Shown: one piece after another, positions 9,005 through 57,040 of the stretch
Layout: every line of letters begins with the position of its first letter
How positions within the stretch are numbered: the stretch's first letter is position 1
Assembly (NCBI GenBank): GCA_977017645.1
Contig: OZ360229.1
Location: 22,816,001 to 22,880,000 of the forward strand
DNA length: 64,000 bases
Reading direction: 5' to 3'
From: Torpedo marmorata
Lineage: Eukaryota
The notes under the pieces: model-generated
Told to the model about the DNA's origin: nothing
Database searches by the model: none
The model's input: the letters and a program-made list of their open reading frames with translations, nothing else
Translations under genes and position numbers: made by a program

Positions 9005-12000
9005 TTTTTTTTTTTTTTGAATATTTTATTTAAAATTTTAAATCACATAATACATTATATAAATCGCAAAATTATCAAAATACATGTGATACATTTTCTC
9101 CCTCCCAACCACCCTCCCCACCCTAACCCCCCCGCCCCTCCCTAACCCTCCCACCCCTACTAATCTATAAAATAAAATAAAATAAAGTAAAGAAAAGAAA
9201 AAGAAAAACTAAGGAGAATGTCAATCTAAACTAAAAAATATAACTATAAACTAAAATTTTGTGGAAATTAGGTTACCAGCCTGATCCAATGTTCAGAGAT
9301 CTTCAAATTTTTATTTTTAAGCCGACCAATTTTATATATGGGCTCCATATTTTCGAAAAGAAATGATATTTATTACGTAAATTATAAGTAATTTTTTCAA
9401 GTGGTATACAAGAACGAAGTTCTGCGTGCCACCTTTCTAAACCTAAGTCTACATCAGATTTCCAAGTGATAGCGATACATTTCTTAGCAACCGCTAAAGC
9501 AATTCTCAAAAACTCAATTTGATACATATTTAAATTCATCATAATACTAATTCTTTTAATATCCCCAAATAAAAATATCATCGGATCCATTGGAAGTACA
9601 TTTCTTAATACTTTGTCCAAAAATTCCTTAACTTTAAACCAAAAATCCTGAATCTTTGGACAAAACCAAGTAGAATGTACAAAAGAACCTTCTTCCCCAT
9701 TACATCTAAAACACATATCTGATAACGCTGGATTAAACTTCTTTAATTTTTTAGGTGTCAAATATAATTGATGAAAAAAATTATATTGCACTAATCTATA
9801 TCTGACATTAATAATTTTAGTCATACTTAATTTACATAATTCTTTCCAATGTTTTTCTTCTATAGTTACATTCAAATCTAATTCCCATTTTAATCTTGAT
9901 TTATGAATTGCTACCTTAGGCATTTTCCTCTGTAATAATTTATACATTTGAGAAATAAATTTATTTACACCTCCGTTTGTAACTAATAATTCAAATTCAC
10001 TTTGTCGAGGTAAAACCAAATTATGACCCAGTTTTTCAACTAAAAAAGCTTTAATTTGAAAATAGGCAAAATATGTATTATTTAATATATTAAATTTATC
10101 TTTCATTCTTTGAAAAGTAATAAATTTACCAGCTTCAAAACAATCATTTACCTTCTTAATTCCCTTTAAAAACCAAATTTTAAATAACTGATTATTAAAA
10201 GCAAACGGAATAAGTCTATTTTGATATAAAGGCATATTTGGCGAAATTAAACCTTTCGCTCCTATCTCTTTATCCAATCTATTCCATATTTCTAATAAAT
10301 GTTTAAAAATAGGAGAATTTTTACCATTTATCAATATTAATTTAGAATTCCATTTATAAATAACTTCCTCCTTCAAATCTTCTCCTATATTATTTAATTC
10401 TATCCGGATCCATGCCGAATCTTTTGTTAAGTCGAACAATTCATTAATAAACCATAGTTGAGCTGCTTTATAATAATTTTGAAAATTAGGCAGTTGTAAT
10501 CCACCCAATTCATAATTCCAAGTTAATTTTTCCATAGCTACTCTAGCCAATTTACCTTTCCACAGAAACTTCCTAATAATAAAATTTAAATCTTTAAAAA
10601 ATTTTTGAGGAATTTCATATGGAATGGATTGAAAAAGATATTGAATCCTTGGAAAGATATTCATTTTAATACAATTTACCCTTCCTAATAAAGTTATAGG
10701 TAAATCTTTCCAACTTTCCAAATCTTCTTTAATTTTCGCAAATAATGGTAAGTAATTTAATTTATACAAGTTGGCTAATTTAGTATCTATCTTTATACCT
10801 AAATATTTAATTCCTTCGTTTGACCATTTAAATTGTGTAATTTCTTTACATTTACTATAATCATCTTGTGTTAATGCCATAATTTCACTTTTATCAGAAT
10901 TAATTTTATAACCAGAAATCTCCCCATATTCCCTCAGTATAACATCCAAATGTATTAAAGAAGTAATTGGTTTTGTCATATATATCAATACATCATCTGC
11001 AAATAAATTAATCTTATGTTCTTCATTTCCAACTTTAATACCTGCAATCCTAATATCTTGTCTAATTAATTCCGCCAAAGGTTCAATTGCTAAAACAAAT
11101 AATGCAGGTGATAACGGACATCCTTGTCGCGTCGACCTAGTCAACAAAAACTTTGAAGAAATTTGTCCATTTGTAACCACCCTAGCAGAGGGTTCTTTAT
11201 ATATAGTTTTAATCCAATTAATAAATATAGTTCCAAACCCAAATTTTTCCAATACTTTAAATAAATAATTCCACTCTAATCTATCAAAAGCCTTTTCAGC
11301 ATCTAGTGATAATACTAATGATAATTCCTCTCTCTTTTGTGCCACGTTTATTAAACTAATTAACCTAGCTATATTATCTTTTGAATATCTATTCTTAATA
11401 AAACCTGCTTGATCTTCATGAATTAAATCTGGCAAATATCTAGCAAGTCTATTTGCTAATATTTTCGCCATTATCTTATAATCCACATTTAACAATGAAA
11501 TCGGTCTATAAGATTCTGTTTTCAACGGATCTCTATCTTTTTTTGGTATAACTGTTATTATTGCATTAGAAAATGTTTCCGGTAAAGAATGAGTTTCCGT
11601 TATTTGTTTTAATACTTCCATATATGGGGGTATCAATAGATCTTTAAATTCCTTATAAAATTCTGGTGAAAAACCATCCTCACCTGGAGATTTCCCATTT
11701 GCTAAAGAACTAAGGACCTCATTAACTTCTCTCATCGTAAATGCAGAATCTAAAAACTCTTTACTTCGAATATTTAATCTAGGCAATTTGATCTTAGATA
11801 AAAAAGCATTCACCTTAGAATCACCTTTATCAGTTTGAGATTTATATAAATTTAAATAAAATTCCCTAAAAGAATCATTTATTTCCCGAGGTTTGAACGT
11901 TATCTTCTTTGAATTCTTTTTTTTAACAGCATTTATAGTCCTAGAAGTTTGTTCTTTTTTTAATTGCCAAGCCAACACTTTATGTGCTCTTTCACCCAAT

Positions 12001-12926
12001 TCATAATATCTTTGTTTAGTTCTTTCAATTACTTTTTCCGTTTTATATGATTGCAATGTATTATAATACAATTTCTTTCCAATTAAATTCCTCCTTTTTT
12101 CTTCTGATTTTCTCTTTTGTAAATCTTTTTCCAAAAATTCAATCTCTTTCTCCAATTTATCTAATTCTTGAGTATATTCCTTCTTAACCTTTGCTGAATA
12201 ACTTATTATTTGACCTCTTAAATAAGCTTTTAAAGTATCCCAAATAATAAATTTATTATCCATTGAACTAGAATTAATCTGTAAAAATTCATGAATTTCT
12301 CTTCTTATATAATTACAAAAATCTGGTCTTTTCAATAACGAAGAATTAAATCTCCATCTATATGTCATTTTCTCTTTTTCCGGAATTATACAAGACATTA
12401 TTAAAGGGGAATGGTCAGAAATTATTCTTGCTTTATATTGTATTTCAGTAACTCTATCTTGTAAATGAGATGACAATAAAAACATATCAATTCTAGAATA
12501 AGAATCGTGTCTAAAAGAATAAAAAGAATAATCTTTTTCCTTTGGATTCGATTTTCTCCAAATATCAACTAAATTCAAGTCCTTCATCAAAGAAAGAATT
12601 CTCTTTGCAATTTTAGTTCTAACTATTGATTTGGATGTTTTATCTAGTATTGGATCTAAACAACAATTGAAATCCCCCCCAATTAAAATATTCTCATTTG
12701 CTTCTGATAAATGCAGAAAAGAATCTTGAATAAATTGTTCATCTTGATTATTTGGAACATATATATTCATAAGCGTCCACATTTCAGAATATATCTGGCA
12801 ATTTATTAAAGCATATCTTCCTGAAACATCTAATACCATTGACTGTAACTTAAAAGGTAATTTTTTATTAATTAAAATAGCAACTCCTTTTGCTTTAGAA
12901 TTAAATGAAGACGCAATCACTTGACC
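9005..12926 (-). mobile_element. L1-clade LINE 'C', near-complete ORF2, nested in 'B'
   Basis: Poly-A tail seen as a T-run at 9005. 40-bp TSD with 1 mismatch at 8965-9004 and 12927-12966. Confidence 0.92.
9303..12920 (-). CDS. L1-clade ORF2p: AP endonuclease, reverse transcriptase and C-terminal Cys-rich domain; uninterrupted 1205 aa, N-terminus truncated
   Basis: Endonuclease motifs GVAIL, GGDFN, SRIDMF, SDHSP. RT motifs LDAEKAFD, QGCPLSP, FADD, YLG. C-terminal motif CFRC...HSTWFC. Confidence 0.93.
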   Translation of the reverse strand: MIASSFNSKAKGVAILINKKLPFKLQSMVLDVSGRYALINCQIYSEMWTLMNIYVPNNQDEQFIQDSFLHLSEANENILIGGDFNCCLDPILDKTSKSIVRTKIAKRILSLMKDLNLVDIWRKSNPKEKDYSFYSFRHDSYSRIDMFLLSSHLQDRVTEIQYKARIISDHSPLIMSCIIPEKEKMTYRWRFNSSLLKRPDFCNYIRREIHEFLQINSSSMDNKFIIWDTLKAYLRGQIISYSAKVKKEYTQELDKLEKEIEFLEKDLQKRKSEEKRRNLIGKKLYYNTLQSYKTEKVIERTKQRYYELGERAHKVLAWQLKKEQTSRTINAVKKKNSKKITFKPREINDSFREFYLNLYKSQTDKGDSKVNAFLSKIKLPRLNIRSKEFLDSAFTMREVNEVLSSLANGKSPGEDGFSPEFYKEFKDLLIPPYMEVLKQITETHSLPETFSNAIITVIPKKDRDPLKTESYRPISLLNVDYKIMAKILANRLARYLPDLIHEDQAGFIKNRYSKDNIARLISLINVAQKREELSLVLSLDAEKAFDRLEWNYLFKVLEKFGFGTIFINWIKTIYKEPSARVVTNGQISSKFLLTRSTRQGCPLSPALFVLAIEPLAELIRQDIRIAGIKVGNEEHKINLFADDVLIYMTKPITSLIHLDVILREYGEISGYKINSDKSEIMALTQDDYSKCKEITQFKWSNEGIKYLGIKIDTKLANLYKLNYLPLFAKIKEDLESWKDLPITLLGRVNCIKMNIFPRIQYLFQSIPYEIPQKFFKDLNFIIRKFLWKGKLARVAMEKLTWNYELGGLQLPNFQNYYKAAQLWFINELFDLTKDSAWIRIELNNIGEDLKEEVIYKWNSKLILINGKNSPIFKHLLEIWNRLDKEIGAKGLISPNMPLYQNRLIPFAFNNQLFKIWFLKGIKKVNDCFEAGKFITFQRMKDKFNILNNTYFAYFQIKAFLVEKLGHNLVLPRQSEFELLVTNGGVNKFISQMYKLLQRKMPKVAIHKSRLKWELDLNVTIEEKHWKELCKLSMTKIINVRYRLVQYNFFHQLYLTPKKLKKFNPALSDMCFRCNGEEGSFVHSTWFCPKIQDFWFKVKEFLDKVLRNVLPMDPMIFLFGDIKRISIMMNLNMYQIEFLRIALAVAKKCIAITWKSDVDLGLERWHAELRSCIPLEKITYNLRNKYHFFSKIWSPYIKLVGLKIKI

Positions 12927-13675
12927 AACTATTATCAGGAAAGGAAATACTAAGAAATTTACTTCTATAGTATATTCCTTGCTACAGAGGGGAGCTCAAA
13001 AACGAGGACTTCATAAGTCCAGACAAAGATGGGAACAAGATCTTAATATTACAATTGATGAAAAAAGATGGTCGGATCTATGCTTGGATAGTATGACTAA
13101 TACTGTTAATGTAAGATATAGACTGGTACAGTACAACTTTTTACATCAAATATACCTCACACCACAAAAACTGAACAAGATGAACTCTGCAATACCAAAT
13201 AGATGTTTTAGATGTGGAGAAGAAGAAGGAACATTCTTACATTCAACGTGGTCATGTTCAAAAGTTAAAGTTTTTTGGACAGAGTTAGGAAACCGGTTAA
13301 AACAAGTTACAGGTGTTACATTTCCTCAAAACCCTGACTTGTTCTTATTGGGGAATGTAGAGGGAGCTAGACCAAAATTGAAACTATCTATATGGCAATT
13401 AAAATTCGTAAAAATTGCACTAGCAGTAGCTAGGAAATGTATAGCAGTGACTTGGAAATCGGATACAAATCTGAGTATGAATAGATGGAATTCAGAGATG
13501 CAGAGTTGTATCCCATTGGAAAAAATAACATACAGTATGAGGAATAAGTATGGACTCTTTTTACAAATTTGGCGTCCATTTATCCAACTATTAGGAATGA
13601 ATATTTAAATATGTTGCCCTACATCCCAGATCCCGCTGACTCTTTTAAGTTTAAATTTGAAGAATGAACATTGTT

Positions 13676-15207: not shown

Positions 15208-15975
15208 TTTGAAGAATGAACATTGTTGAATTTCTTGCATCGAGCCATGGATATGTACAGATATATTTTCACTTGTTCTTTTCCCTTCTCTTTTCTTTTT
15301 TTAGTTCTAGTATGGGGAGGGGATAAGGGATGGGAAGGGTGGAGGATGGGTTGTTTTAGTAAGGGTGGGTTTAGATGGGGTTAGATTCATGGTAATACGA
15401 AATTCCTATGTATCGTACTTAACTAATGTTTACTGTGTATTTTACATTATTTTGTATTATTGTGAAAAATTTGAAAATCTTAAAATAAAATATTTTTAAA
15501 AATTTTTAAAAAAGCTATCGGTTATACTCAATGGCAAAGTTTGGGTATCCAATCTTTTCTAGATCTATATATTGACCAAAATCTTGCTTCTTTTGAACAA
15601 TTATCTATTAAATTTAAAATACCTAAACATCACTTATTTCGTTATTTCCAGATTAGGAGCTTCTTAAATTCTTTAATGCTGAAGCTTCCCCAGGACTTAG
15701 ATTTTAACCTTATTTGGGAAGTATATAATTTTAAACCTAATCATAAAGGATTGCTTTCTGCCCTTTATGAATTACTTCTAAGATCTAGGGATGGTTTCCT
15801 AGGTGGTATTAAGAAATTATGGAACAAGACTTTCAACAACCATTTGCTAAAACTACATGGGATTTTATTTTGAAACGTGTTCACTCATCTTCATTAATAC
15901 AATTTAACGTAGTCCATCGGGCACACTTTTCCAAGGTTCAGTTAGCTAAATTTTATCCTAACATTTCTTCTAAAT

Positions 15976-17952
15976 GTGATAAATGCCTTCTTCCTCTTCC
16001 TGGACACCCCGCCCTGGCCAGCTGCCCGCTCTGGACCTTTTTATTTCCAACTGCCGCCGAGACATCAACCGTCTCAACTTCACCACCCCCTCTCGTATTC
16101 CAACCTCACCTCCTCAGAACACTCTGCCCTCCACTCTCTCCGCAACAATCCCAACCTCACCATCAAACCCGCAGACAAGGGCGGTGCGGTTGTGGTCTGG
16201 CGCACTGACCTCTACCTTGCCGAGGTCAGTCGACAACTCTCAGACACCTCCTCCTACCGACCCCTCCCACAGGACCCCACCACAGCACATCAAGCCACTG
16301 TCTCCAACACCATCTCCGACCTCATCACCTACGGTCACCTCCCCTCCACGGCCACCAACCTCATTCTCCCCCACCCCCGCACTGCCCGTTTCTACCTTCT
16401 ACCCAAGATACACAAACCCAACCATCCGGGCAGACCCATTGTTTCTGCCTGCTCCTGCCCCACCGAACTAGTTTCATCTTACCTTGACTCCATCTTTTCT
16501 CCCCTGGTCCAATCCCTCCCCACCTACATCCGCGACACCTCACATGCCCTCCATCTCCTCAATGACTTCAGATTCCCTGAACCGGACCGCATCATCTTCA
16601 CCATGGATGTCCAATCCCTTTATACCTCCATCCCCCACACAGAAGGTCTGAAAGCACTTCGCTTCTTCTTGGACCAAAGACCCGACCAGTCACCCTCTAC
16701 CACCACCCTCCTCCGCCTGGCAGAACTTGTCCTTACTCTCAATAACTTCTCCTTCAACTCATCCCACTTCCTCCAAATCAAAGGAGTAGCCATGAGTACC
16801 CGCATGGGTCCCAGCTATGTCTGCCTGTTTGTGGGCTTTGTGGAGCAATCCATGCTGCAAGCCTACACAGGCAAGACCCCTCATCTCTTCCTCCGGTATA
16901 TCGATGACTACATCGGGGCTGCCTCATGCACCCACGATGAGCTTGTCAACTTCATCCACTTCGCATCCAACTTTCACCACGATCTCAAACTCACCTGGTC
17001 CATCTCCGATAACACTCTCCCCTTCCTGGATCTCTCTGTCTCCATCTCGGGAGACAAGCTTTCCACTGACATTTACTACAAACCCTCCAACTCCCACAAC
17101 TATCTGGACTACACATCCTCACACCCTGTCCCCTGCAAGGACTCCATCCCCTTCTCTCAATTTCTCCGCCTCCGCCGCATCTGTTCCCAAGATGAGGTGT
17201 TCCACTCCAGATCTTCTGAAATGTCTGCCTTTTTCCACAAACGTGGCTTCCCCTCCACCACCATCAACTCAGCCCTCACCCGCATCTCCTCCATTTCCCG
17301 CTCATCTGCCCTGTCCCCCTCTGCCCCCAGACGCAACAAACATAGAATACCCCTCATCCTCACCTACCACTCCACCAGCCTCCGCATCCAACACATTATC
17401 CGCCGGAATTTCCGGCACTTGCTGCAGGATCCCACCACCAGACACATTTTTCCTTCTCCTCCCCTCTCGGTCTTCCGTAGGGACCGCTCCCTCCGCGATT
17501 CACTCGTGCACTCGTCCCTCCCCACCCATCGCACCACCGGAACCTTCCCCTGTGCCCGCAGGAGGTGCAACACCTGCGCCCACACCTCCCCCCTCACCAC
17601 GGTCCAGGGCCCCAAACAGGCCTTCCAAGTGAAACTACACTTCACTTGTACATCCAGAGGACTTATTTACTGCATCCGGTGCTCCCTTTGTGGCTTTCTA
17701 TACATTGGAGAGACCGGTCGTAGATTGGGAGACCGCTTTGCTGAGCACCTCCTCTCCGTCCGCAACAACAGCGACCTCCCAGTAGCCAACCATTTCAATT
17801 CTGGGTCACACTCCCACACTCACATGTCTGTCCATGGCCTCATATACTATCCCACCCAGACTACCCACAAATTGGAGGAACAACATCTCATATTCCGTCT
17901 CGGCACTCTCCAGCCAGATGGAATTAACATTGACTTTTCTGCTTTCCACTAA
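15976..17952 (+). CDS. Penelope-like reverse transcriptase with GIY-YIG endonuclease (N-terminally truncated)
   Basis: Motifs IKPADKGGAVVV, LPKIHK, GRPIVS, MDVQSLYTSIP, GVAM, RYIDD and LPFLD. Endonuclease LIYCIRC..CGFLYIGETGRRLGDRFAEH and terminal GIN. The first residues of the ORF derive from flanking L1 or another frame. Confidence 0.9.
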   Translation: MINAFFLFLDTPPWPAARSGPFYFQLPPRHQPSQLHHPLSYSNLTSSEHSALHSLRNNPNLTIKPADKGGAVVVWRTDLYLAEVSRQLSDTSSYRPLPQDPTTAHQATVSNTISDLITYGHLPSTATNLILPHPRTARFYLLPKIHKPNHPGRPIVSACSCPTELVSSYLDSIFSPLVQSLPTYIRDTSHALHLLNDFRFPEPDRIIFTMDVQSLYTSIPHTEGLKALRFFLDQRPDQSPSTTTLLRLAELVLTLNNFSFNSSHFLQIKGVAMSTRMGPSYVCLFVGFVEQSMLQAYTGKTPHLFLRYIDDYIGAASCTHDELVNFIHFASNFHHDLKLTWSISDNTLPFLDLSVSISGDKLSTDIYYKPSNSHNYLDYTSSHPVPCKDSIPFSQFLRLRRICSQDEVFHSRSSEMSAFFHKRGFPSTTINSALTRISSISRSSALSPSAPRRNKHRIPLILTYHSTSLRIQHIIRRNFRHLLQDPTTRHIFPSPPLSVFRRDRSLRDSLVHSSLPTHRTTGTFPCARRRCNTCAHTSPLTTVQGPKQAFQVKLHFTCTSRGLIYCIRCSLCGFLYIGETGRRLGDRFAEHLLSVRNNSDLPVANHFNSGSHSHTHMSVHGLIYYPTQTTHKLEEQHLIFRLGTLQPDGINIDFSAFH

Positions 17953-31035: not shown

Positions 31036-31223
31036 AAAGTAAACACGAAAATCTGTGGACACCGTGGTTGAAGTAAAAAACACAAGCTGGAGAACTCAGC
31101 AGGTCAAACAGTGTCTTTTATGTAGCAAAGGTAGAAATACAAAAACGACGTTTTTGTATTTCTACCTTTGCTACATAAAAGACACTGTTTGACCTGCTGA
31201 GTTCTCCAGCTTTTGTGTTTTTT
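31036..31223. mobile_element. Fold-back (palindromic) Penelope terminal fragment with TSD
   Basis: 13-bp TSD aggtcagattgca at 31023-31035 and 31224-31236. Perfect 64-bp inverted arms at 31084-31147 and 31149-31212. The sequence matches 18166-18280. Confidence 0.88.
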
Positions 31224-37018: not shown

Positions 37019-37065
37019 CAGATGATTTGCTCCTGTCCTAAGCTGATTGCTGCTGTATAAGTCAT

Positions 37066-37310
37066 TGATATACCCATCAATTAGCACTGAAGAGACTATG
37101 AGTGGGAAACGAACCATAGGCTTTTATTGACATAAAACAGACCTACAGTGGACCTGCAGATCTATCCCGGACTGTGGGCGGAGCGGTGGCACAAAGGCCT
37201 TTATTCGGGTGAGAAAGGGGGAGGGATTACCTGGACACCCAAAGGAGGGGAGAGGAGTCGCCGGGACAGACAGCAGTCCACATGATATATACAAACAGTG
37301 GTTTACCACA
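37066..37310 (-). repeat. 3' LTR of the Gypsy element
   Basis: Direct repeat of 41333-41577, with about 5 differences counted by eye. Confidence 0.95.
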
Positions 37311-37326
37311 TTCACCCCTCCTTTTT
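37311..37326 (-). other. Polypurine tract
   Basis: The minus strand reads aaaaaggaggggtgaa immediately before the TGTGG start of the 3' LTR. Confidence 0.85.
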
Positions 37327-37385: not shown

Positions 37386-40300
37386 TCACAGGTCAAGGCG
37401 ATCCGGTGGTTTGGCTCGCCTTTGTGACCTGCGCAGTGCCCTGGGTGCGGGTTGTGGTGCAGGGGAAGATGGCAAGGCTGTTGCCTTCTCCTGTGGTGCT
37501 GGGTGAGATGGCAGGATTGTCTCCTCCTGCCTGGCTTTTTGTGGTGTAGGTTCCGTCGAGGGTGACGTTGTAGAAGAGGGAATAGGGAGGGGCCGCAGCG
37601 AGTGGTCTTGCCCGTCGAGAGGTTCCTCCGGCGCTCCCGCGGGTGCCAGGTCCCGAATTGAGACCGTGTCCTCTCTCCCATCCGGGAAGACCACGTAGGC
37701 GTACTGCGGGTTAGCGTGCGCTAACTGCACCCTCTGGACCGCGGGCTCATATTTGCTGCTCCGAAGGTGGTTGCGGAGCAGCACCGGTCCCGGAGACGTC
37801 AGCCAGGCAGGCAGGGCGGTTCCGGTGTTCGACCTCCTGGAGAAGGAGAAAAATCTCTCATGAGGTGTTACATTGGTGGCCGTGCACAGTAAGGACCGTA
37901 TTGAATGGAGGGCTTTGGGGAGAACCTCTTGCCAGCGGGATACCGGCAGTCCCCTGGACTTGAGAGCCAGGAGCGCCGCCTTCCAGACAGTGGCGTTCTC
38001 CCTTTCCACCTGTCCATTACCTCGGGGGTTGTATGCGGTGGTCCTACTAGTGGCGATGCCCCGGGTCAGCAGGTACTGGCGCAGCTCCTCACTCATAAAA
38101 GCTGATCCCCGGTCGCTATGAATGTAGTTCGGGAAGCCGAACACCGTAAATACCTGGCGAAGAGCTTTTATGGTTGAGGCAGCCGAAGTGTCGGGGCAGG
38201 GAATGGCAAAGGGGAACCGCGAGTACTCGTCAATTATGTTCAGAAAGTACACATTGCGGTTCGTGGAGGGAAGGGGCCCCTTGAAGTCAATGCTGAGACA
38301 TTCAAAGGGGCGAGTGGCTTTGACCAGCTGTGCCTTGTCGGGGCGGTAGAACTGGGGTTTGCACTCCGCGCAAACCCGGCAACTGCTGATCATTGTCCTG
38401 ACCTCTTCCAGGGAGTATGGCAGGTTCTGTGACTTCACGAAGTGAAAGAGCCTGGTAATTCCTGGGTGGCATAGGTCGTCATGTAGGGCGTGTAATCGGT
38501 CGATCTGCGCGCTGGCGCACGATCCCCGGGATAGAGCATCGGAGGGCTCATTGAGCTTCCTGGGCCGGTACATGATGTCGTAGTTGTAGGTGGAGAGCTC
38601 TATTCTCCACCTCATGATCTTGTCATTCTTGATCTTACCCCGCTGCTGATTGTTGAACATGAATGCCACAGAGCGTTGATCTGTCAGCAGGGTAAAATGC
38701 TTACCGCCGAGATAGTGCCTCCAGTGCCTGATGGCTTCCACTATGGCCTGGGCTTCCTTCTCCACCGCTGAGTGCCGAATTTCGGGGCCCTGGAGGGTTC
38801 GAGAGAAAAATGCCACCGGCCTTCCCGCCTGGTTGAGGGTAGCAGCCAGCGCGAAGTCCGATGCGTCACTCTCCACCTGGAAAGGTGTCTCCTCATCCAC
38901 TGCGTGCATTGTTGCTCGCGCAATGTCCCCTTTTATAAGGTCGAATGCCTTACGTGCCTCCGAAACAAGGGGAAATGCAGTGGATTTCACAAGGGGTCGG
39001 GCCTTGTCCGCATAATTTGGGACCCATTGCGCATAATAGGAAAAGAACCCGAGGCATCGTTTAAGGGCTCTGGTGTTGGTGGGGAGCGGAAGTTCCAGCA
39101 GGGGGCGCATGCGTTCGGGGTCTGGTCCAATTACCCTGTTTTCGACCACATACCCCAAAATAGCGAGGCGAGTGGTACCAAACACGCATTTTTCTTTGTT
39201 ATACGTGAGGTTTAGGGCTTTGGCCGCCTGCAGGAACCTCCGGAGGTTGTTGTCATGATCCTGACGATCATAACCACAGATGGTAATGTCGTCAAGGTAT
39301 GGGAAAGTGGCTTTAAGTTTGTAATGGTCCACAATCCTGTCCATCTCCCGCTGAAAAACAGAAACACCATTAGTGACACCAAACGGAAGGCGCAGGAATT
39401 GGAACAGCCTGCCATCTGCCTCGAACGCGGTGTATGAACGGTCCTCCCGACGGATAGGGAGCTGATGATATGCCGATTTCAAATCAATGGTGGAGAAGAG
39501 CCGGTATTGGGCAATTTGGTTCACCATCTCCGCTATCCGTGGTAGCGGGTATGCATCAAGCAGTGTAAACCTGTTGATGGTTTGACTGTAGTCCACCACC
39601 ACTCTGCTCTTGGCCCCTTTTACCACAACCACCTGGGCTCTCCAGGGACTATTACTCTTCTCTATAATCCCTTCCTGTAGCAATCTCTGTACCTCCGTCT
39701 TGATAAATGCTCTGTCCTCGGCACTGTAACGCCTGCTTTTAGTTGCCACAGGCTTACCGTCCGGGGTCAGGTTCGCAAACAACGACGGAGGCGAGATCTT
39801 AAGGGTGGAGAGACCACAGGTGGTTTCGGGCGTGCTATCCAGAAACTGGTGGTTGGCCACAGTGATCGCAGGGAGAGGACCGTCATACCACATTGTAACA
39901 CTCCGCAAATGGCTCTGAAAATCCAAACCCAGTAACACCGGCGCACACAAACGGTTCATGACAAACAAGGAAAATTACCGGTACTCCGTCCCTTGTACCA
40001 CAATGTTCGCCACACACGCCCCCCGGATGTCTGTTGTGTGGGACCCAGATGCCATGGCCACCCTCTGGCTTACCAGTACGATCGTTAGGCCACAGCGTTG
40101 AACAGTATCCGGGTGGATAAAGCTCTCAGTGCTGCCAGTGTCGAACGAGCACGTTATCTTGTGTCCCTCGACCAGTATGTCCATCATGGATCTTGCCAGC
40201 TGGTGGGGAACGTTCTGGTCGAGGGTGACGGATGCCAAAGTTGGGGTGAAGTCGTCTTGGTCCGAGGTCGTTAAAAATGGCCGCTCCCGTGGGTTGCACG

Positions 40301-41309
40301 TGTCGCTGGAGGTCTCTTTACAAAATGGTGGCGCCGGAAGTGCAGGGAGTACCGAAGTACTGCTATGAGATGGCGGCGCCGGAAGTGCCAGCATGAAAGA
40401 TGGCCGCTTCCATTCCTCACACGCAGTCGGCGCCAGAAGTGCCAGTCTGTAAGATGGCCGCTCCCATTTCCTGCACACGGCACTACTTGGGCCCGCGCGC
40501 GGCTTGGAGCAGCAGGCCTTCGCGTAGTGGCCTTTCTGGCCGCAGTTGGAACAAGTCGCGTTGCGGGCCGGGCAGCGTTTCCTCGGATGCTTGTCGAGCC
40601 CGCAGAAGTAGCACTTCTCGGGCTCGCGATTAGCAGCTGCGGTGGTGAGCGTAGTGTCGGTAGCGATCGGGTCGCGGGCAACGGCGGCAACAGTCGGGTC
40701 ACGGGCCACCGCGGCCACAGTTAGATCGCTGGGGCTGGGGGACGGGGCGATCCACGCAGTAGGCTGGGGGTCCCGCGTCTGCATAGCATCGGAGTTCTGC
40801 AGCGCGGACTACAGCGTGCGAGCCATCGCCACCGCGGTACGGAGATCGAGTTCGGAGTGCTCCAGCAGCTGCTGGCGTACATATACCGACCTCATCCCCA
40901 TGATAAAGGTGTCCCTCTCCAGCAGATCAACGTGTTGTTCCTCGGTCAGCGCTTTACAGGCGCACGCTCGCACTAGGGACTGGATGTCCCTGACGAAGTC
41001 CACTATCGACTCCCCGGCCCGCTGTTTTCGCAACGATAGTCTGTACCTTGCGTAGACCTCATTAACAGGGGTTACGTAGATCTTTTTCAGTGCCTCCATC
41101 GCCTCGTTGTACGTTTCGCATTTCCAAATAGTAGAATACAACCGAGGGCTTACCCTGGATACGAGGACCTCCAGTTTCTGCTCCTCGCTTTCGGCCTTGA
41201 CCGCTGCTGAGAACGATCAGAGGCAGCGTAGCCAGTGTTCGAACGCGTGGCCAGCATCAGGAGCTAAAGGGTCGATGTCCAGTCGGTCCGGTCGGAGGGC
41301 GCTTTCCAT
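37386..41309 (-). pseudogene. Gypsy gag-pol single reading frame with three in-frame stops
   Basis: ATG at 41309. ORFs 40809-41141, 39975-40784 and 37386-39968 are all in one frame. Motifs: Zn knuckles CYFC..H..C and CSNCGQKGHYAKAC, protease FDTGS, RT YLDD, RNase H SDASD and EKEA, integrase HHCC and DDE (IDFKGP, HSDRG, GQVER). Confidence 0.9.
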
Positions 41310-41332
41310 TACTTTTATTATGTCAATAAAAT

Positions 41333-41577
41333 TGATATACCTATCACTTAGCACTCAAGAGACTATGAGTGGGAAACGAACCATAGGCTTTTATTGACAT
41401 AAAACAGACCTACAGTGGACCTGCAGATCTATCCCGGACTGTGGGCGGTGCGGTGGCACAAAGGCCTTTATTCGGGTGAGAAAGGGGGAGGGATTACCTG
41501 GACACCCAAAGGAGGGGAGAGGAGTCGCCGGGACAGACAGCAGTCTACATGATATATACAAACAGTGGTTTACCACA
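41333..41577 (-). repeat. 5' LTR of the Gypsy element
   Basis: Reads TGTGGTAAACC...GTATATCA on the minus strand and contains AATAAA. Confidence 0.95.
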
Positions 41578-41849
41578 GTCATAGAATGCTAAAATCAATC
41601 TCAGCACCCTAAAGTAGATAAATGAACTTAGCGAGCATTCATTCAGAATTATGATCACTGTACAATGCCTGTGACAAGAGTAGCTGTAGGTCAGTGGCTT
41701 ATTCTTTTGTTTACTGACTCAGTAGGTTCTAAATTGCACCCTCATGCTTTGATGTGCTGGCTGACACTCCTAGCTCAGTACTAAAGTAACCTTAGATGTG
41801 GCACTTTTTTTAGGTGAGGCAGTAGATTAAGTTCTCATCTGCCTCTCTT

Positions 41850-42497: not shown

Positions 42498-45407
42498 TAG
42501 ATAATAGACAATAGGTGCAGGAATAGGCCATTCGGCCCTTCGAGCCAGCACCGCCATTCACTGTGATCATGGCTGATCATCCACTACCAGTACCCCGTTC
42601 CTGCCTTCTCCCCATATCCCTTGACTCCGCTATCTTTCAGAGCTCTATCTAACTCTTTCTTGAAAGCATCCAGAGAATTGGCCTCCACTGCCTTCTGAGG
42701 CAGAGCATTCCACAGATCCACAACTCTGGGTGAAAAAGTTTTTCCTCAACTCCGTTCTAAATGGCCTACCCCTTATTCTTAAACTGTGGCCTCTGGTTCT
42801 CGACTCCCCCAACATCGGGAACATGTTTCCTGCCTCTAGCGTGTCCAATCCCTTAATAATCAAATATGTTTCAATCAGATCCCCTCTCATCCTTCTAAAT
42901 TCCCGTGTATACAAGCCCAGTCGCTCCAATCTTTCAACATATGACAGTCCCGCCATCCCGGGAATTAACCTCGTGAACCTACGCTGCACTCCCTCAATAG
43001 CAAGAATGTCCTTCCTCAAACATGGAGACAAAAACTGCACACAATACTCCAGGTGTGGTCTCACCAGGGCCCCGTACAACTACAGAAGGATCTCTTTGCT
43101 CCTATACTCAACTCCCCTTGTTATGAAGGCCAACATGCCATTAGCTTTCTTCACTGCCTGCTGTACCTGCATGCTTACTTTCAGTGACTGATGAACAAGG
43201 ACACCTAGATTTCGTTGTACTTCCCCTTTTCCTAACTTGACACCATTCAGATAGTAATCTGCCTTCCTGTTCTTGCCACCAAAGTGGATAACCTCACATT
43301 TATCCACATTAAACTGCATCTGCCATGCATCTGCCCACTCACCCAATCTGTCCAAGTAACCCTGCATTCTCATAACATCCTCCTCACATTTCACACTGCC
43401 ACCCAGCATTGTGTCATCTGAAAATTTGCTAATGTTACTTTTAATCCCTTCATCTAAATCATTAATGTATATTGTAAACAGCTGAGGTCCCAGCACCAAA
43501 CCTTGTGGTACCCCACTAGTCACTGCCTGCCATTCTGAAATGGATCCGTTAATCCCAACTCTTTGTTTCCTGTCTGCCAACCAATTTTCTATCCATGTCA
43601 GTACCCTACCCCCAATACCATGTGCTCTAATTTTGCCCACTAATCTCCTATGTGGGGCTTTCTGAAAGTCCAGGTACACTACATCCACTGGCTCTCCCTT
43701 GTCCATTATCATAGTTACAACCTCAAAATATTCCAGAAGATTAGTCAAGCATGATTTCCGCTTTGTAAATCCATGCTGACTCAGACCGATCCTGTTACTG
43801 CTATCCAAATGTGCCGCTATTTCATCTTTTATAATTGACTCCAGCATCTTCCCCACCACTGATGTCAGGCTAACTGGTCTATAATTCCCTGTTTTCTCTC
43901 TCCCTCCTTTCTTAAAAAGTGGGATAACTTTAGCTACCCTCCAAACCACAGGAACTGATCCTGAATCAATAGAACATTGGAAAATGATTACCAATGTGTC
44001 CACGATTTCTAGAGCCACCTCCTTAAGTACCCTGGGATGCAGACCATCAGGCCCTGGGGATATATCAGCCTTCAGTCCCATCAGTCTACCCAGCACCATT
44101 TTCTGCCTAATGTGAATTTCCTTCAGTTCCTCCGTTACCCTAGGTCCTCTGTCCACTATTACATCTGGGAGGTTGTGTGTGTCTTCCCTAGTGAATACAG
44201 ATCCAAAGTACCTGTTCAACTCATCTGCCATTTCCTTGTTCCCCATAATAATTTCACCCGTTTCTGTCTTCAAGGGTCCAACTTTGATCTTAACTAATTT
44301 TTTCCTCTTCACATACCTAAAGAAGCTTTTAATATCCTCCTTTATATTCTTGGCTAGCTTACCTTCATACCTCATCTTTTCTCCCCGTATTGCCTTTTTA
44401 GTTATCTTCTGTTGCTCTTTGAAAGTTTCCCAATCCTTTGGCTTCCCGCTCATCTTTGCTATGTTATACTTCTTTTATTTTTATACTGTCCTTGACTTCC
44501 CTTGTCAGCCACGGTCACCCCTTACTCCCCTTAGAATCTTTCTTCCTCTTTGGAATGAACTGATCCTGCACCTTCTGTATTATTCCCAGAAATACCTGCC
44601 ATTGTTGTTCCACTGTCATCCCTGCTAGGGTATCTTTCCACTCAACTTTGGCAAGCTCCTCCCTCATGGCTCCATAGTCCCCTTTGTTCAACTGTAATAT
44701 TGACACTTCCGATTTTCCCTTCTCCCTCTCAAATTGTAGATTAAAACTTATGTTATGGTCACTACCTCCTAATGGCTCCTTTACCTTGAGTTCCCTTATC
44801 AAATCCCACACAATCACAAAGAAGGCTCGTCAGCAGCTATACTTTGTGAGGTGTCTGCGGAGATTCGGTATGTCACCAAAGACTCTCGTAAACTTCTACA
44901 GGTGTACCGTGGAGAGCATTCTGGCTGGTTGCATCACTGCCTGGTATGGAGGCGCCAACTCCCAGGACAAGAGTAAACTCCAGAAGGTTGTTAACTCGGC
45001 CTGTGACATCACAGGCACCAAACTTCACTCTATCGAGGACATCTACATGAGGCGGTGTCTTAAAAAAGCAGCCTCTATCCTCAAAGACCCCCACCACCCA
45101 GGCCATGCCCTCTTCACTCTGCTTCCATTGGGAAAAATGTACAGGAGCCTAAAGACGAGCACTCAATGGCACAAGGACAGCTTCTTCCCCGCTGCCATCA
45201 GATTCCTGAATAATCAATGAACCAAGGACACTGCCCTACTTTTCGTGCATTATTGTTTATAATTTTTTTTATAGTGGTGTCGTTGGATGGTTAATATGAA
45301 TGTTAATTGCACTATGATGCTGCCTCAAAACACTGAATTTCATGACTTGTTCATGACAATAAATTCTGATTCTGATTCATTACACAACACTAAATCCAGA
45401 ATTGCCT
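42498..45407 (-). mobile_element. CR1 LINE (5'-truncated, frameshifted RT), interrupted by a Rex1 insertion at 44811-45376
   Basis: Motifs LGGSDH, SPGPDGLHPRVLKE, NYRPVSLTS, YLDFQKA, GVPQG, FSDD and LVRPHLEYCVQF. The CR1 3' UTR ends in a ctattgt-type repeat. Confidence 0.9.
44811..45376 (+). mobile_element. Rex1/Babar LINE 3' fragment inserted in CR1
   Basis: Encodes ITKKARQQLYFVRCL...FFPAAIRFLNNQ and ends in an (attctg)n tail. Confidence 0.88.
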
Positions 45408-54790: not shown

Positions 54791-55150
54791 TCTCTCCGCA
54801 GGTGCTGTGTGGCTTGCAGAATATGACCAACATTTCCATTTTTACCCCCATGACACATCATTCCCATCATTAAACTGCCTGCAGAAATCTAGTATGAAGT
54901 GGGAGTAATTCGATAGCTCTTCCAAATAGCCAGCAGCGGAAAATTCATCCCCCTACAGGACATAATTCAATTACACATTAGTCCTCACTCACATGAGCTG
55001 CCAACACAACAAAAATGACAAAACAAACAGAGGATTAATTTCAGATGTTGTTTGTGAATGGATAGAGAACCAAGCAGTGGGACTGCAGTGATTTGTTTGA
55101 ATCCCTCAGTATACCCATGTTTATTACACTGTGGCATCTATTTCCAGTCA

Positions 55151-57040
55151 GCCTGATACCAAACACCGGGTGTTCCCCAACCAGAAGCCCTGGATGAATC
55201 AGAGAATTTGCAACCTGCTGAGGGCAAGAACAAGGGCGTTTAAGGCCGGGGACCGGGATCTTTACAAGATGTCCAGGCACGACCTGCAGAAGGCCATCTC
55301 TGAAGCAAAGTGGCAATTCCAGAGGAAGCGAGAGACAGAGACAGATACACGCCAGCTATGGCAGGGAGTGCACGCCATTACAGCCTACAAAGTGAGGGCG
55401 AACACTATAGACGGCTGTGATGCTTCACTACCCAATGAGCTGAACACCTTCTATGCCCGCTTTGAGAAGAACCAAACAGTGCCAACGAGAATTCCTGAAA
55501 AGGCTGAGGACCCTGTGATATCTGTCTCTGAGGGCGACGTCAGAACATCATTCAAGAGGGTGAACCCTCACAAGGCGTCAGGCCCTGACGGCGTACCTGG
55601 CAGGGTACTGAAAATCTGCGCCAACCAACTAGCCGGAGTGTTCACAGACATTTTCAACCTCTCATTGCGGCAGTCAGAGGTTCCCACCTGCTTCAAAAGG
55701 GCATCAATCATCCCGGTACCCAAGAAGAGTAGTGTGAGCTGCCTCAACGACTACCGCCCAGAAGCACTAACTTCTACTGTGATGAAATGCTTTGAAAGGC
55801 TGGTCATGGCCAGAATTAACACGTACCCTAAGCAAAGATTGGACTCACTGCAATTCGCCTATCGTCACAATCACTCCACAGCAGATGCAATATCGCTGGC
55901 TCTCCACTCAGCTCTGGATCACCTCGAAAACAGCAATTCATACATACGGCTGCTCTTCATCGACTACAGCTCAGCCTTCAATACCATTATTCCCTCAGTG
56001 CTGGTCAAGAAGCTACAAGCTCTAGGCCTCTGTACCCCCCTCTGCAACTATATCCTTGACTTTCTCATCGGAAGACCACAGTCAGTACGAATTGGAAACA
56101 ACGTCTCCTCCTCACTGATTATCAACACAGGCGCACCCTAAGGATGCGTGCTTAGTCCACTGCTCTACTCATTATACACCCATGACTGCGTGGGCAGGCA
56201 CAATTCCAATGCCATCTACAAGTTTGCCGATAACACCACAGTTGTCGGCAGAATCACAAACAGCAATGAGGAAGCGTACAGGAGGGAGATAGATCAGCTC
56301 GTTGAATGGTGTAACGACAACAACCTTACGCTCAATGTCAGCAAAACCAAGGAGATGGTTGTGGACTTCAGGAGGAAGTCAGGGGAACACGACCCAGTCC
56401 TCATTGAGGGCTCAGTAATGGAGAGGGTCAAGAACTTCAAATTCCTGGGTGTCAACATCTCCAAGGATCTGCCCTGGAGCCTCCAGGTTGATGCAATCAC
56501 AAAGAAGGCTCGCCAGCAGCTATACTTTGTGAGATTCGGTATGTCACCAAAGACTCTCGTAAACTTCTACAGGTGTACCGTGGAGAGCATTCTGGCTGGT
56601 TGTATCACTGCCTGGTATGGAGGCGCCAACTCTCCGGACAAGAATAAACTCCAGAGGGTTGTTAACTCGGCCTGTGACATCACAGGCACCAAACTTCACT
56701 CCATCGAGGACATCTACATGAAGCAGTGTCTTAAAAAAGCAGCCTCTATCCTCAAAGACCCCCACCACCCAGGCCATGCCCTCTTCACTTTGCTACCATC
56801 GGGAAAAAGGCACAGGAGCCTAAAGTCGAGCACTCAACGGCACAAGGACAGCTTCTTCCCCGCTGCCATCAGATTCCTGAATAATCAATGAACCAAAGAC
56901 ACCGCCTTACTTTTCGTGCACTATTTTTATTTATTTTTTATAGTAATGGCGTAAGATGGTAATAATATGAATGTTTGCACTATGATGCTGCTGCAAAACA
57001 CCGAATTTCATGACTTGTTCATGACAATAAATTCTGATTT
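55151..57040 (+). mobile_element. Rex1/Babar LINE, 5'-truncated RT with a nonsense mutation at 56139-56141
   Basis: Motifs [34 protein letters not shown] and KFADN; tail acaataaattctgat. Confidence 0.92.

Follow-up and report, generated by a model that had tools for sequence, protein, structure and literature searches.

Covarying complementarity between the primer-binding position and the LTR suggests self-priming in a non-chromodomain Ty3/gypsy clade of animals

Directly behind the 5' LTR of a Ty3/gypsy element in the genome of Torpedo marmorata, the primer-binding site (PBS) position is complementary to a segment of the element's own LTR (the arm), and this PBS-LTR pairing is a real, conserved and covarying signature of the clade to which the element belongs. 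The best reading of this signature is self-priming of the kind known from Tf1, with masking of a poly(A) signal as a side effect. The element's RNA probably starts at the arm core, and its first 11-12 nt would pair with the PBS and be cut free by RNase H, replacing the tRNA. That the element may self-prime was the original prediction, drawn from the letters of the window (the whole 64,000-nt stretch of DNA that was analysed), and it is now supported by covariation, by the lack of a match among 27 host tRNA genes and by signs of copying from arm to PBS.

Background

Several retroelements have been described that appear to manage without a tRNA primer; what we say of them refers to the portions of the cited texts available to us. 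Tf1 and Tf2 of Schizosaccharomyces pombe, Tj1 and the Tf1/sushi group have no tRNA site, and the PBS that immediately follows their LTR pairs with part of that LTR, as in the clade studied here (PMC7175516, PMC10085805, PMC4600332, PMC11042837, PMC5341516). The Tf1 primer is 11 nt long and is cut free by RNase H (PMC7175516), and Tf1 cDNA retains a single-stranded PBS at its 3' end (PMC11042837). Self-priming has likewise been predicted from PBS-LTR complementarity for the plant Tcn1 chromoviruses and for the TAR elements (Houba, Osr-1) of Ty1/copia, the latter indicating that it arose outside the chromoviruses; these differ from our clade in being of another superfamily or clade and in having plant hosts, and the available text gives no covariation or copy-error evidence for them (PMC6317226). 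The dictyostelid elements Skipper and DGLT-A are also Ty3/gypsy elements without an identified tRNA primer, but Skipper has a polypyrimidine site without an LTR complement, as well as a chromodomain, and DGLT-A retains the TGG (PMC5006619).

Self-priming is reported in the available text of the sources surveyed only for Tf1/sushi-type chromoviruses, plant Tcn1 and TAR copia elements (PMC3601003, PMC6934838, PMC9873768, PMC2996927, PMC4600332, PMC6238403, PMC11042837, PMC6317226, PMC13524379, PMC10085805, PMC7175516, PMC5006619, PMC10886601, PMC5341516). No published description of self-priming in the present clade was found in these texts; Butler 2001, Simmen and Bird 2000, GyDB and Repbase could contain one.

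Results

The element and its primer-binding position

The element lies on the minus strand of the window, measures 4,512 bp (~4.5 kb) and has LTRs of 245 bp each that differ at 5 positions. Its TG...CA LTRs, target duplication, polypurine tract and PR-RT-RH-IN domain order (the Gypsy order) are those of Ty3/gypsy. Its features, in window coordinates, are as follows.

41578..41582, minus strand: target-site duplication, 5 bp, left copy (right copy at 37061-37065)
41333..41577, minus strand: 5' LTR, TG...CA, 245 bp
41389..41402, minus strand: arm within the LTR that can pair with the PBS position; its conserved core, 41389-41400, is the putative self-primer, with a putative cut between 41389 and 41388
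41390..41395, minus strand: AATAAA hexamer within the arm, predicted to be paired in the 5' LTR and more open in the 3' LTR
41339..41388, minus strand: loop region; a short stem (41388-41383 paired with 41344-41339) closes it, starting immediately after the arm
41332..41332, minus strand: 1-nt spacer from the terminal CA to the PBS, an A in 22/22 aligned families
41318..41331, minus strand: PBS position, of non-tRNA type and able to pair with the LTR arm
39975..41309, minus strand: gag-protease portion of one long frame, which in-frame stops interrupt in the window copy (codons 31, 167 and 445)
37386..39974, minus strand: RT-RNase H-integrase, 862 open codons, without chromodomain or Tf2-type SH3 domain
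37311..37326, minus strand: polypurine tract, directly before the 3' LTR
37066..37310, minus strand: 3' LTR, 245 bp

Past the 5' LTR the element reads terminal CA, one A and then the 14-mer 41331-41318, which is the exact reverse complement of 41402-41389, with no extension of the match on either side; the arm sits 56 nt upstream of the PBS position. The polarity suits priming, with the 3' end of the arm (an A-run) pairing with the bases that adjoin the LTR end and facing U5. None of 20,000 dinucleotide-shuffled LTRs reached 14 nt of pairing (maximum 12). The original prediction had named this perfect 14-nt complementarity, its overlap with AATAAA, a leader of about 23 nt and the absence of a chromodomain, and each is borne out: the sequence and the shuffles agree on the first, the hexamer lies inside the arm, the gag ATG at 41309 leaves a leader of 23 nt after the LTR, and a domain scan of the window Pol finds no chromodomain.

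The absence of TGG and of any complement to a tRNA 3' end, claimed at the same time, likewise stands, and the proposed comparison of the PBS with host tRNAs yielded neither a tRNA nor a fragment match in a partial set of 27 distinct host tRNA genes (9 anticodons), in which the 3'-anchored match is 1 nt only and the longest internal match is 5-7 nt, as in shuffles (~5.5). Assignment to the tRNA-primed type (TGG plus a tRNA 3'-end complement 0-3 nt from the LTR) was rejected on the missing TGG and the 1-nt match to these 27 genes, and copia-type priming by a tRNA fragment, with a fixed internal-tRNA PBS, on the short best match and on a PBS that varies with the LTR. Because the PBS varies family by family along with the LTR, a fixed tRNA site is ruled out, and this is a stronger argument than the tRNA search itself.

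Covariation within the genome and across hosts

The 6.2-Gb host genome contains 5,873 matches to a motif of the junction from LTR end to gag start (34 for the control) and 9,822 to a motif of polypurine tract plus LTR, i.e. about 10,000 insertions. All 14 bp are kept in 29 of the 30 closest copies (the window included; copies picked by similarity). A shorter motif was also searched in the genome; its first 30 matches carry seven different arms, and 29 of these matches pair over 11-15 nt, the sole non-pairing copy having a damaged LTR. Eight elements were picked by their 3' LTR alone; six had a readable 5' junction, and all six pair over 12-15 nt. In a sister subfamily AATAAA has become ATTAAA, and both PBS partners have changed to match. 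Single mismatched copies do occur (L250, L253, L255, L257).

For other hosts we used 59 loci of the clade from metagenomes and MAGs. Of these, 25 have a gag start and 24 are judgeable (some loci represent the same family); 23 of the 24 show 9-17 nt of complementarity at the same place, the exception being L071, which lacks pairing. Pairing of the PBS with its own LTR is complete (11/11) in 20 of 25 families or subfamilies, as against 13 of 600 cross pairs, and no permutation among 100,000 matches this figure (L051, L071 and three singleton arms were left out of the test). When elements from the host genome and from other organisms were aligned in 22 rows, 263 of 264 cells were paired and two-sided changes appeared at 9 of the 12 pairs; slid controls gave 28-46%. 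In contigs of two other organisms, 3/3 and 2/3 changes are compensated. Pairing is kept even among families whose RT-RH sequences are merely 44-66% identical. The covariation that the original prediction had proposed to look for is thus present both within the genome and across hosts, and the loss of complementarity in related families, which it had named as counter-evidence, is confined to L071 among the judgeable loci.

Complementarity that arose by chance, or as a neutral by-product of template switching without a role, is extremely improbable. The arm is AT-rich, and fold-back errors (see below) write LTR sequence into the leader at ~1% of junctions. Against such an origin stand the absence of any other primer site, the pairing across divergent families, the 0/20,000 shuffles (whose counts are not probabilities because the families are related rather than independent, kinship inflating such statistics), and above all the covariation, which largely refutes it (20/25 families; 263/264 cells).

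Anatomy of the arm and the poly(A) hexamer

By arm position, pairing is found in 32-34 of 34 distinct contexts of the host genome at -1 to -12, in 19 at -13 and in 14 at -14; the conserved pairing core is 11-12 nt, so that the 14-nt duplex first described is exact in the window but shared across families only over this core. Among 19 arms from other hosts, position -11 is A in 15 and position -10 is G in 17; with T-rich sequence before it, this AG resembles the metazoan initiator motif. In the host genome -11 is T in 31 of 34 contexts, and the initiator argument therefore rests on the other hosts. No TATA box lies upstream of the arm, and no transcript start, end or poly(A) site was found in three contig sets.

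The PBS begins 1 nt past the CA in 22/22 rows, although the loop ranges from 21 to 66 nt, and the short stem starts at the first base past the arm (summed score 111 versus 67 in shuffles; 49 versus 34 in other hosts). Folding predictions pair the arm with a probability above 0.9 for most pairs, whatever transcript start is used, and give the hexamer an unpaired probability of at most 0.01 in the 5' LTR versus 0.25-0.95 in the 3' LTR. The arm ends in AATAAA or ATTAAA in 19 of 22 families. These hexamer results, and the span of the tRNA comparison (just 27 distinct genes and 9 anticodons), accord with a hairpin that merely masks the poly(A) signal of the 5' LTR while a tRNA fragment or some other host RNA acts as primer. 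We regard this as decidedly improbable: a masking arm need not pair exactly 1 nt past the LTR over loops of such different lengths, nor extend past the hexamer by ~5 nt and then stop abruptly; there is no TGG; a PBS that differs among families would require many different host RNAs; and copying runs one way, from arm to PBS. Masking, which the original prediction had offered as an alternative or additional role, is consistent with the predicted hiding of the 5' hexamer and leaves the fixed 1-nt spacing unexplained.

A second AATAAA is present at 41472-41467 in the presumed U3, followed by GGCC (41472-41463), with a matching place in L004, a second family. It resembles the arm end and may compete as a poly(A) signal or belong to the promoter; self-priming does not explain it.

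Copy-error fossils at the junction

Beyond the 12-bp duplex, the next two bases are unpaired in 2,744 + 563 = 3,307 of 3,352 junctions of one family group. A variant first base past the PBS occurs in 45 junctions, and 43 of these read exactly as the LTR complement. The 43 conversions (among which about three loci are assembly duplicates) comprise 15 normal elements in which a short stretch is converted, representing five or more leader backgrounds, 9 that continue partway and 19 that run to LTR base 1. The window's own family group has 41 such junctions, of which 30 were examined; 21 reach LTR base 1 and 9 stop partway. Altogether there are 73 fold-back-type junctions: 40 end precisely at LTR base 1, 7 pass it into the polypurine tract and pol, and the partial ones stop at scattered LTR positions from 7 to 163. 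Five of the 40 are inserts with two U3 ends (LTR plus inverted U3) flanked by direct 5-bp repeats and must therefore have been inserted in that form; one comparable case has no repeat. Against the 43 arm-to-PBS cases, not one of the opposite kind was found, in which leader sequence would have been copied to a place upstream of the arm.

These fossils point to the arm as the template of the PBS. They are most simply explained if plus strong-stop DNA carries at its end a copied primer, derived from the arm and at most 12 nt long, and sometimes folds back; the length is suggested by the persistence of mismatches just past 12 nt in 3,307 of the 3,352 junctions. Fold-backs could also stem from template switching at any inverted repeat, with integrase selecting the products that are seen. 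A long primer with one upstream start was rejected on the scattered ends of the partial fold-backs.

The arm might also serve as primer without being the capped 5' end of the RNA, through an upstream start and excision on both sides, or through the arm copy of the 3' LTR in the same RNA or a dimer partner. The duplex is predicted equally well from upstream starts, no promoter motif fixes the start in the host's own genome, the arm shares its place with the poly(A) hexamer, a site of 3'-end processing, and the 7 of 73 fold-backs that extend past LTR base 1 would fit as well. We nevertheless think it unlikely, given a copied primer that is normally no longer than 12 nt, scattered fold-back ends that mark no single upstream start, and the initiator-like AG at -11/-10 in other hosts.

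Several further junctions deserve mention. Those reading polypurine tract, LTR and PBS number 62 (L313-L374) and consist of 55 tandem elements sharing one LTR, 3 fold-backs and 4 others (matches of 3, 7, 9 and 12 nt in three, plus one of 6), at least 2 of which fit chance. Short PBS remnants are not overrepresented behind 3' LTRs (the 4 others among 62), and they could not be used to read primer length, 55 of the 62 being tandems. Tandems sharing one LTR amount to ~0.6% of the 9,822 3' LTRs and are akin to the Tf1/Tf2 tandems described in the available text of PMC11042837. The other end of full fold-backs is cut at LTR 172-215, in or beside the U5 loop, in 12/21 and 3/17 cases (L269, L271, L272, L274, L275, L278, L280-L282, L285, L292, L214), as if hairpin-capped DNA had integrated at one end and the loop had been opened. 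In L235, a single case with short microhomology, 62 nt of fold-back are followed by sequence that resumes at the leader start, which is the expected minus-strand end if priming began at the PBS position. In L353, 9 nt of PBS stand between the 3' LTR and the reverse complement of U5.

Relatives and clade placement

The best protein relatives are found in rays and sharks (73-84%), followed by cnidarians, a damselfly and Trichinella at about 60-65%; at least 1,574 clusters passed among 7,986 scored, and a second protein search adds Trichuris, crustaceans and further insects. With relatives in cnidarians, arthropods and nematodes, the lineage, first labelled a vertebrate Gypsy, is not vertebrate-specific. 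Viral contigs yielded no relatives of the element. Seven contigs in bacterial MAGs (L201-L207) carry the clade and are most likely eukaryotic contamination.

An RT-RH tree (FastTree, 100 rows; 9 of 98 loci with fewer than 250 aligned residues left out) recovers the clade as one group, apart from chromovirus-type loci, which make up a separate clade with a support of 1.0 and a long branch; a sister relation to the chromoviruses is possible in this tree, which consists of the clade and chromovirus-type loci without other named Gypsy clades. The chromodomain is absent from the window Pol and from 5/5 intact relatives, and present in 2 of 3 scanned outgroup proteins, the third stretch ending before the integrase core. 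Unlike Tf1/sushi elements, the clade has neither a chromodomain nor a Tf2-type SH3 domain, and its RT-RH, 32-36% identical to that of the chromovirus-type loci, falls on a separate branch; judged by its sequence, the element is not a Tf1/sushi member.

The name 'Ronin', considered at first, was dropped, as it occurs only as a Fugu repeat name. Cigr-1 of Ciona intestinalis, reportedly described by Simmen and Bird in 2000, is said to have 245-bp LTRs and one ORF of ~1,200 codons. Its likeness to our clade is in these LTR and ORF sizes only, the comparison being by description and not by sequence. The Cigr-1 clade occurs also in molluscs (PMC6238403); the main text of that paper, as available to us, does not mention a PBS or self-priming, and a motif search of its available supplements found no Cigr-1 or MolGy reference sequences.

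Discussion

The mechanism that we favour, Tf1-like self-priming, is proven in Tf1 and inferred for this clade. Transcription would start at the arm core, in the window near 41399-41400 rather than at 41402 as first expected, and the RNA 5' end would fold onto the PBS. The element's RNase H would cut after the A-run, as in Tf1, freeing a 3'-OH, and minus strong-stop DNA would jump by means of the part of R that follows the hexamer. Plus strong-stop DNA would copy the primer, so that the PBS is rewritten from the LTR, which would speed covariation; its end may accidentally fold back on the arm. The arm:PBS duplex would make the poly(A) hexamer of the 5' LTR inaccessible and leave that of the 3' LTR free.

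Like the Tf1/sushi elements, as far as their available descriptions go, the clade has a core of ~11 nt and plus-strand DNA that apparently ends in a primer copy. It differs in its leader of 13-51 nt and in a primer arm that contains the poly(A) hexamer, and the three-duplex pretzel of Tf1 is not supported, a duplex downstream of the PBS being found in 2/22 only. As a positive control, chromovirus-type loci (L090, L093-L096, L104, L105, L108) show 8-9 nt of PBS-LTR complementarity, placed 2 nt past the LTR compared with 1 nt in the clade.

In the available literature, self-priming in Ty3/gypsy has so far been tied to Tf1/sushi-type chromoviruses. We suggest, tentatively, that a large pan-animal non-chromodomain Ty3/gypsy clade, undescribed in print in this respect, independently evolved tRNA-free priming, in which a single 11-12-nt segment acts as initiator, primer and poly(A) signal and is rewritten into the PBS each cycle, leaving fold-back strong-stop fossils throughout the genome. 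If so, a second self-priming clade (more than 1,500 protein clusters, and ~10,000 insertions here) would make the dropping of the tRNA primer a repeated and successful route in animals, and the elements would presumably be freed from tRNA supply and from silencing by tRNA fragments. It would also explain why tRNA-based PBS annotation should miss the clade, and would offer a much simpler RNA substrate than Tf1 for studying the cleavage of an RNA duplex by RNase H. Copy-error fossils might allow priming sites to be read from genomes alone.

Elsewhere in the window, positions 31075-31221 hold a 73-nt inverted repeat, 97% complementary, with arms 1 nt apart. Four long ORFs (9303-12995, 15946-17952, 43080-44474 and 55101-56891) presumably encode non-LTR retrotransposon RTs, which we take by eye to be L1-, Penelope-, CR1/L2- and RTE/Rex-like.
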